Of a DNA stretch of 64,000 nucleotides, positions 63,689 to 63,890 are shown in pieces (positions within the stretch are counted from its first letter, which is position 1; each line of letters begins with the position of its first letter). Below the pieces are notes generated by a model. The model searched no databases, had not been told where the DNA came from, and worked only from the letters and a program-made list of their open reading frames with translations. Position numbers and translations under genes: made by a program. This stretch comes from Paenibacillus flagellatus (GTDB taxonomy: Bacteria; Bacillota; Bacilli; Paenibacillales; NBRC-103111). The stretch covers positions 1 through 64,000 of the forward strand of contig NZ_QJVJ01000012.1 in assembly GCF_003217775.1 (NCBI RefSeq), in the 5' to 3' direction.

Positions 63689-63860
63689 GCAAAAAGCCTG
63701 CGCCACAAAAGCGCAGGCTGAAACCGAATCGATACGCGAAACCGAATTCGATTACGGCGTGCTCGCTCGCATGCCGGCAACCTGGCGATCGTGGCTCCGT
63801 AGGGCGGAGCGGTAGACCCATGGCTTTGCGTCACTCCCTTTCGGGAGTTTTGCCACCTTC
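63689..63860 (-). ncRNA. Cyclic-di-GMP-I (GEMM) riboswitch with terminator expression platform
   Basis: Minus-strand RNA reads GGUGGCAAAACUCCC-GAAA-GGGAGUGACGCAAAGCCAUGGG..., i.e. GGCAAA, a GNRA-capped P2 and the conserved GACGCAAAGCC. It ends in AGCCTGCGC-TTTTGTG-GCGCAGGCT followed by TTTTTG, 45 nt upstream of the MORN gene start. Confidence 0.6.
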
Positions 63861-63890
63861 ATTATAGGTCGTACATCCTAGATGATGCAA
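63861..63890 (-). promoter_or_regulatory. Sigma-A-type promoter driving the riboswitch and surface-protein operon
   Basis: On the minus strand: TTGCAT (63885-63890), 18-nt spacer, TATAAT (63861-63866). Confidence 0.55.

Follow-up and report, generated by a model that had tools for sequence, protein, structure and literature searches.

A class I c-di-GMP riboswitch, probably a transcriptional OFF switch, in the leader of a two-gene surface-protein operon of Paenibacillus flagellatus

Introduction

A noncoding segment on the minus strand near the end of the window (the whole 64-kb stretch of DNA analysed here) lies in front of a gene pair for a secreted MORN-repeat protein and an SLH-domain protein. 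The first-pass annotation had taken this segment for a class I c-di-GMP (GEMM) riboswitch with its own promoter and had named no direction of control. The locus therefore raises the question of whether the segment is such a riboswitch and, if so, whether c-di-GMP turns the two genes on or off. In this study, we analyzed the aptamer, the promoter, and the leader hairpins of the segment, together with those of related loci. Our reading is that the operon leader probably holds a class I c-di-GMP riboswitch that terminates transcription at high c-di-GMP, since its expression platform argues for termination induced by the ligand.

Results

Identity of the aptamer

The whole 64-kb window was scanned with Rfam 15 using cmscan, and the sole match above the gathering score was to RF01051 (c-di-GMP-I/GEMM), at 63864-63773 on the minus strand. 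The match scored 73.5 bits (E = 1.6e-12), about twice the RF01051 gathering score of 35 bits, and spanned model positions 1 to 87 of 87 without truncation; it is far above the chance level. A scan of 58000-64000 with permissive filters returned the same match and no additional RNA family. The Infernal check against RF01051 proposed in the first-pass annotation thus bears out its assignment, and the motifs by which it had recognized the aptamer are all present on the minus strand: GGCAAA at 63854-63849, ACUCCC-GAAA-GGGAGU at 63848-63833, and GACGCAAAGCC at 63832-63822. Read along that strand, the order is TTGCAT, 18 nt, TATAAT, GAAGGU, GGCAAA, ACUCCC-GAAA-GGGAGU, and GACGCAAAGCC.

According to the model alignment, the first hairpin (63853-63828, minus strand) is closed at its base by G63853-C63852 and G63829-C63828 around ACUCCC-GAAA-GGGAGU, with the GAAA loop at 63842-63839, and the second hairpin occupies 63825-63779. 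When the window aptamer was aligned with seven related aptamers, RNAalifold recovered both hairpins, and 14 of the 24 pairs carried compensatory double changes. The GAAA loop is present, and its putative receptor, CUACC...CCACGA, departs at 2-3 positions from the consensus CUAAg...cuAuGa. In the crystal structures of Vc2, the ligand is contacted by G20, A47, and C92 (Vc2 numbering). Alignment to RF01051 places their equivalents at G63854, before GC-AAA; at A63827, after GACGC; and at C63777, the first C in the GCC that follows the second hairpin. As aligned, G/A/C at positions 20/47/92 is the canonical c-di-GMP combination, and the window aptamer is predicted to bind c-di-GMP. That the segment at 63864-63773 is a genuine c-di-GMP-I aptamer appears to us almost certain.

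A different ligand is highly improbable, be it another cyclic dinucleotide such as 3'3'-cGAMP (GEMM-Ib) or the ligand of a variant class (c-di-GMP-I-GGC or -UAU). The variant families have the same fold and belong to the same Rfam clan (CL00126), and L001, the related locus with the closest orthologue, scored best with RF03167. Against this, the window carries the canonical c-di-GMP set, RF01051 is its best clan member, and L001 also has A47 (GACGCAAAGCC) despite its RF03167 score. A20 is said to mark the cGAMP type, reportedly from work by Kellenberger in 2015 and Nelson in 2015; a GEMM-Ib identity, which requires A20, was rejected because 63854 is a G. Likewise rejected was an RF03167 (c-di-GMP-I-GGC) identity, which requires G47 (GACGCGAA in the family consensus): the window reads GACGCAAAG, and cmscan retains RF01051.

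The gene pair and related loci

Gene 1 (62566-63645, minus strand) starts with TTG and encodes a protein of 359 amino acids that matches a Paenibacillus flagellatus protein at 100% identity. A signal peptide could be read off its sequence, and Pfam assigned Cu_amine_oxidN1 (stalk; PF07833, 8.9e-30) and MORN (PF02493, 7.1e-25) domains; MORN structures match residues ~150-357. This agrees with the MORN-repeat secreted protein of the first-pass annotation, which had also placed an SLH protein of 790 amino acids 48 nt further on. The SLH protein is there as gene 2 (60149-62518, minus strand), although its distance from the gene 1 stop is 47 nt and its length 789 amino acids. Gene 2 is preceded by a GGAGAAGGAG ribosome-binding site, and its product has a signal peptide, again read off the sequence, and C-terminal SLH repeats at ~602-789 (Pfam, 2.2e-27), with PDB SLH domains matching residues 605-716. 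It is solely from these SLH domains that the protein may be called S-layer-associated.

Manual segmentation combined with MAFFT divided residues ~35-600 of the gene 2 product into five tandem modules of ~105-120 amino acids each, which have in common the motif RFxDxxPxPGxIxG...YxLYFxD...VPxGTAxP. The modules gave no match in Pfam, NCBIfam, or the PDB sequences, and a BLAST self-comparison of gene 2 did not detect the repeats. The module may represent an undescribed surface-protein domain, conserved in the orthologues from L001-L005. Downstream of gene 2, the consensus scan found an intrinsic terminator with a 14-pair stem and a U-run (60105-60136, minus strand), followed by a polysaccharide deacetylase gene that has a terminator-like hairpin of its own upstream. 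This strong terminator makes a two-gene unit reasonable and supports the operon that had been proposed.

The gene pair recurs in five loci on related Paenibacillaceae contigs (L001-L005), and a c-di-GMP-I aptamer lies upstream of the pair in L001 and L002 and upstream of a gene 1 homologue without an SLH partner in L006. In L001 (62% identity in gene 1), the aptamer scores 76.7 bits with RF03167 and has the canonical A47; in L002 (55%), it scores 80.4 bits. L003 (48%) has the SLH partner and no aptamer. L004 and L005 (50%) have the SLH partner as well, but a further SLH gene lies directly next to gene 1 and the contig stops, so that the aptamer is not assessable there. In L006, from P. hamazuiensis (43%), a second stalk/MORN gene comes next, and the aptamer scores 67.1 bits; L007 (41%) has neither SLH partner nor aptamer. 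An aptamer-core pattern match also precedes a stalk-domain gene in L027, a Bacillales MAG, where the gene 1 identity (30%) is confined to the stalk domain. The core-pattern scan had returned 27 loci from many phyla; since the core is mere consensus, these loci are useless for aligning expression platforms. L006 additionally carries a group II intron D1-D4 fragment (RF02004, 38.9 bits) at 5113-5243 on the plus strand, ~430 nt upstream of its aptamer. We found no synteny upstream of the riboswitch among the related loci, and the gene upstream of the L001 riboswitch is divergent; the conserved unit therefore comprises the aptamer and the genes, with a promoter of their own.

The window encodes three more large SLH-domain proteins, at 17305-21975 (minus strand), 27962-30838 (plus strand), and 41399-45385 (minus strand), which are GHL10/glucodextranase-like, SpaA/CarboxypepD_reg, and GLUG-motif proteins, respectively. 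No Rfam match lies upstream of these three genes, so within the window riboswitch control is specific to the operon at 63645-60149. Elsewhere, the window contains a gene for a bacterial nitric oxide synthase oxygenase domain (55327-56469, plus strand; PF02898, E = 6.7e-169) and one for an FtsK/SpoIIIE-family ATPase of 1554 amino acids (2147-6811, plus strand), which, judging by its size and the place of its domain, may be an EssC-like ATPase of type VII secretion.

Promoter and predicted transcription start

The promoter named in the first-pass annotation, TTGCAT-N18-TATAAT, is found at 63890-63861 on the minus strand, just upstream of the aptamer. Its −10 hexamer (TATAAT, 63861-63866) is a 6/6 match and is separated by 18 nt from the −35-like hexamer (TTGCAT, 63885-63890). 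Our consensus promoter scan of the window left this site uncalled, because the −35 matches TTGACA at just 3 of 6 positions. TATAAT occurs 22 times on the two strands of the window, with about 11 copies expected. At the equivalent position of L002, the scan calls TTGCTA-N18-TATAAT with 10 of 12 consensus matches, and a pairwise alignment showed that the window and L002 have the block TCGAAA-N3-GTTGC...N18...CTATAAT in common, in which GTTGC and the upstream TCGAAA stand at an equal distance from the −10 in both. In L001, the module must have its own promoter, because the upstream gene is divergent. TTGCAT-N18-TATAAT is thus probably a sigma-A-type promoter. The RF01051 consensus opens with seven positions (uaaugaa) that are identical to the window sequence, which suggests that −10 boxes near the aptamer may be common in the c-di-GMP-I family.

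The spacing from the −10 to G20 is 7 nt shorter in the window than in L002. A start 5-9 nt past the −10 would fall at 63856-63852, at or within ~2 nt of G20, and would therefore deprive a closing helix of its 5' strand. A P1 closing helix in which the 5' flank pairs with the 3' tail was considered as the switching element and rejected; the duplex is weak and interrupted (−5.6 kcal/mol). Without a closing helix at the predicted start and with deviating tetraloop-receptor positions, the aptamer may have an affinity below that of model aptamers. Further upstream, a co-directional ORF (63919-64000, minus strand) runs past the end of the window; its last 26 codons are seen, and its stop at ~63919 lies ~29 nt before the −35. 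No terminator was found between the end of this ORF and the promoter, so read-through transcripts with extra 5' sequence are possible.

Leader hairpins and terminator

Three hairpins follow the aptamer on the minus strand. The first, H1 (CGGC-A-UGC/GCA-C-GCCG, 63755-63776), appeared in every fold and begins directly 3' of the C92 equivalent. The second, H2 (CCG-U-AAUCGA...UCGAUUCGG, 63722-63753), was obtained in the folds, and its L002 counterpart differs in sequence. Two small palindromes, GAATTC and ATCGAT, lie within H2 together with an imperfect direct repeat, ATCGAATTCGGTTTC/ATCGATTCGGTTTC (also given as ATCGAATTCGGTTTC/ATCGA-TTCGGTTTC); H2 may be a spacer, a pause site, or a site for a protein. 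The third is an intrinsic terminator at 63691-63719 with the stem AGCCUGCGCU/GGCGCAGGCU, the loop UUUGU, and a terminal UUUU. Its arms are AGCCUGCGC(U) at 63719-63710 and (G)GCGCAGGCU at 63704-63695, and UUUU reaches 63691. The stem has 10 bp, eight of them G-C, around a 5-nt loop, with pair probabilities of 0.87-1.0. The hairpin and the U-run are thus present as annotated, 45 nt before the start of gene 1 (63645). It lies 54 nt downstream of the aptamer and has no nucleotides in common with it.

The U-run is short, with 4 U, or 5 when the U that closes the stem is added, and is followed by GCGCUUU. The consensus terminator scan, which needs at least 5 T in 8, did not list the hairpin at 63691-63719; we read this as a consequence of counting the closing A-U in the stem, which leaves 4 T. 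Promoter, aptamer, terminator, and gene 1 are co-oriented and stand in this order, as they do in L002, whose leader likewise runs aptamer, H1, H2, terminator with hairpin sequences unrelated to those of the window. We consider it quite likely that control is exerted through the leader terminator.

At the position equivalent to H1, L002 has a 9-bp hairpin of unrelated sequence. H1 itself begins exactly after the C92 equivalent and might serve as a "permuted" closing helix. The aptamer may need no conventional closing helix: the start of transcription would lie inside the junction, at or beside G20, H1 would stack under the ligand pocket, and switching would proceed by strand exchange between the second hairpin and the look-alike terminator. 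Such a distinct architectural subtype of GEMM-I is a doubtful proposition, which we offer as speculation.

L001 and L006 do not share the expression platform of the window. At 5312-5445 on the plus strand of L001, the aptamer sits within a closing helix of ~20 bp (AGGCCUCACACAAUCGA.../...UCUAUUGGGUGAGGCCU), followed at once by the U-rich AUUUAUUUUUG; the closing helix itself looks like a terminator stem, a design unlike that of the window. In L006, a weak hairpin overlaps the aptamer. Neither platform settles the direction of control.

Antiterminator and direction of control

Nascent transcripts of 149-156 nt (ends at 63710-63703) were folded, and their minimum-energy fold pairs 63793-63778 with 63720-63704 through 14 pairs. 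For its 5' strand (CACGAUCGCCAGGUUG, 63778-63793, minus strand), this antiterminator draws on the 3' strand of the second aptamer hairpin, and for its 3' strand (CAGCCUGCGCUUUUGUG, 63704-63720, minus strand) on the 5' arm plus loop of the terminator; the helix encloses H1 and H2. For these transcripts, the free ensemble was 6-9 kcal/mol more stable than the one in which the aptamer was enforced. The duplex has an energy of −21.5 kcal/mol, which shuffled arms equalled in 1% of cases with the same aptamer segment; shuffled extended arms equalled it with any upstream leader site in 12.5% (p ~0.13). The short 14-nt 5' arm of the terminator showed no better upstream complementarity than its shuffles. 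No other upstream partners of the 5' arm were found, and the 3' arm likewise finds its best partners within the second aptamer hairpin. In L002, the terminator 5' arm pairs best with the same conserved segment of the aptamer, through a weak duplex (−13.3 kcal/mol, p ~0.11).

Every alternative pairing of the terminator thus uses strands of the second hairpin, which the ligand locks, so that ligand binding should favour termination and an OFF switch. In the proposed mechanism, transcription would begin at the conserved sigma-A-type promoter directly upstream, and the aptamer (63864-63773) would fold first, followed by the spacer hairpins H1 and H2. When no ligand is present, 63720-63704 would invade the second hairpin and pair with 63793-63778, and this antiterminator would let the polymerase enter the genes. 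When c-di-GMP is bound, the second hairpin would be locked and the 5' arm of the terminator left free; the 10-bp terminator (63719-63695 plus the U-run) would then form and transcription would stop ~45 nt before gene 1. Model class I aptamers bind c-di-GMP with sub-nanomolar affinities, and such an affinity corresponds to an energy above the 6-9 kcal/mol that it would take to keep the invading strand out of the aptamer. An OFF direction would also match Clostridioides difficile, whose class I c-di-GMP riboswitches are transcriptional OFF switches (PMC11477304). OFF is, in our judgement, the somewhat likelier direction.

With the same aptamer and terminator, c-di-GMP could instead promote read-through, so that the surface proteins would be made at high c-di-GMP, much like the adhesins of sessile cells. 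This would suit the frequent induction of surface and adhesion proteins by c-di-GMP, and it has a precedent in Bc2 of Bacillus thuringiensis, located before cap (collagen adhesion protein) and experimentally shown to be a class I ON switch ahead of a wall-anchored adhesin (PMC4933901). Moreover, the sole terminator-like hairpin of L006 would take the 3' strand of the second hairpin as its 5' arm, which amounts to an ON design. Nevertheless, we regard an ON switch as rather unlikely in the window. The terminator stands well clear of the aptamer, locking the second hairpin removes all alternative partners found for its arms and frees it, and no aptamer-independent antiterminator, which an ON design requires and which an unliganded aptamer could sequester, was found in the leader.

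In the full-length equilibrium ensemble, the terminator forms with probabilities of 0.87-1.0 both with the aptamer enforced and without, which makes equilibrium folding uninformative on ON versus OFF. Of the folds that lack the terminator, the best lies 4 kcal/mol above the energy minimum. With the terminator dominant at equilibrium, the switch must be kinetic, or it may respond weakly. The same dominance would be expected if the ligand were bound and the terminator were mainly a constitutive attenuator with little or no response, or if the terminated leader of ~165 nt were itself the product, as a small RNA or c-di-GMP sponge. Such behavior would fit the predicted start site, which permits no closing helix, and has a parallel in Bc1, which binds c-di-GMP yet barely regulates downstream expression in vivo because its terminator persists (PMC11218506). 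We judge it distinctly improbable. At least four lineages, with protein identities of 43-62%, have kept the aptamer in front of genes of this one family, which argues for selection on cis-regulation, and an antiterminator favored by 6-9 kcal/mol does exist in the nascent transcripts. Since class I includes the ON switch Bc2 and the barely regulating Bc1, the OFF direction preferred here stays an inference.

Discussion

With this operon, the c-di-GMP regulon of Paenibacillus gains a further set of surface-protein genes under riboswitch control, and an uncharacterized conserved gene pair is tied to the motile-sessile decision, with the prediction that the pair is expressed at low c-di-GMP. The general understanding of c-di-GMP riboswitches is unchanged; the value lies in genome annotation and in a pointer to the function of two envelope proteins. 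Class I riboswitches before SLH-anchored proteins of Paenibacillus and other surface proteins of Firmicutes are already published, and it is the target operon, the pair of a stalk/MORN gene and an SLH gene, that was previously unreported for c-di-GMP-I riboswitches.

Compared with the GEMM-Ib and RF03167 families, the window aptamer has the same fold and clan, and it differs from them in having G20/A47/C92 and neither A20 nor G47. With established members of RF01051, namely, Vc2 of Vibrio cholerae and flgB/Cd1 of C. difficile, it has in common the two-hairpin core, the GAAA tetraloop, the G/A/C contacts, the position in a 5' leader, and a terminator-based expression platform, and its predicted OFF logic is like that of the C. 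difficile class I switches. By contrast, its tetraloop-receptor positions deviate, the predicted start leaves no closing helix, and the terminator stands two hairpins (54 nt) away from the aptamer; switching is predicted to use the 3' side of the second hairpin in place of a P1 strand, and the regulated genes are different.

Cap, the protein controlled by Bc2, is held by a sortase-type LPXTG anchor, whereas anchoring in the window would be through SLH domains. In both systems, the gene for a wall-anchored surface protein has a leader with a class I aptamer, and terminator and antiterminator compete, but Bc2 is an ON switch and the layout of the window predicts OFF.

A published parallel comes from Paenibacillus itself, where c-di-GMP type I riboswitches lie upstream of PPEP-2 and of its SLH-domain substrate VMSP, and dozens of riboswitch-associated genes have been reported across genomes (PMC8610288). 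No PPEP gene was found within the annotated ~57-64 kb of the window. The PPEP-2/VMSP system and the present operon agree in genus, in riboswitch class, and in having secreted or SLH-anchored surface proteins as targets, and they differ in what those targets are: a Cu_amine_oxidN1 and MORN protein with a five-module SLH protein in the window, instead of a Pro-Pro endopeptidase and its VWFA substrate.
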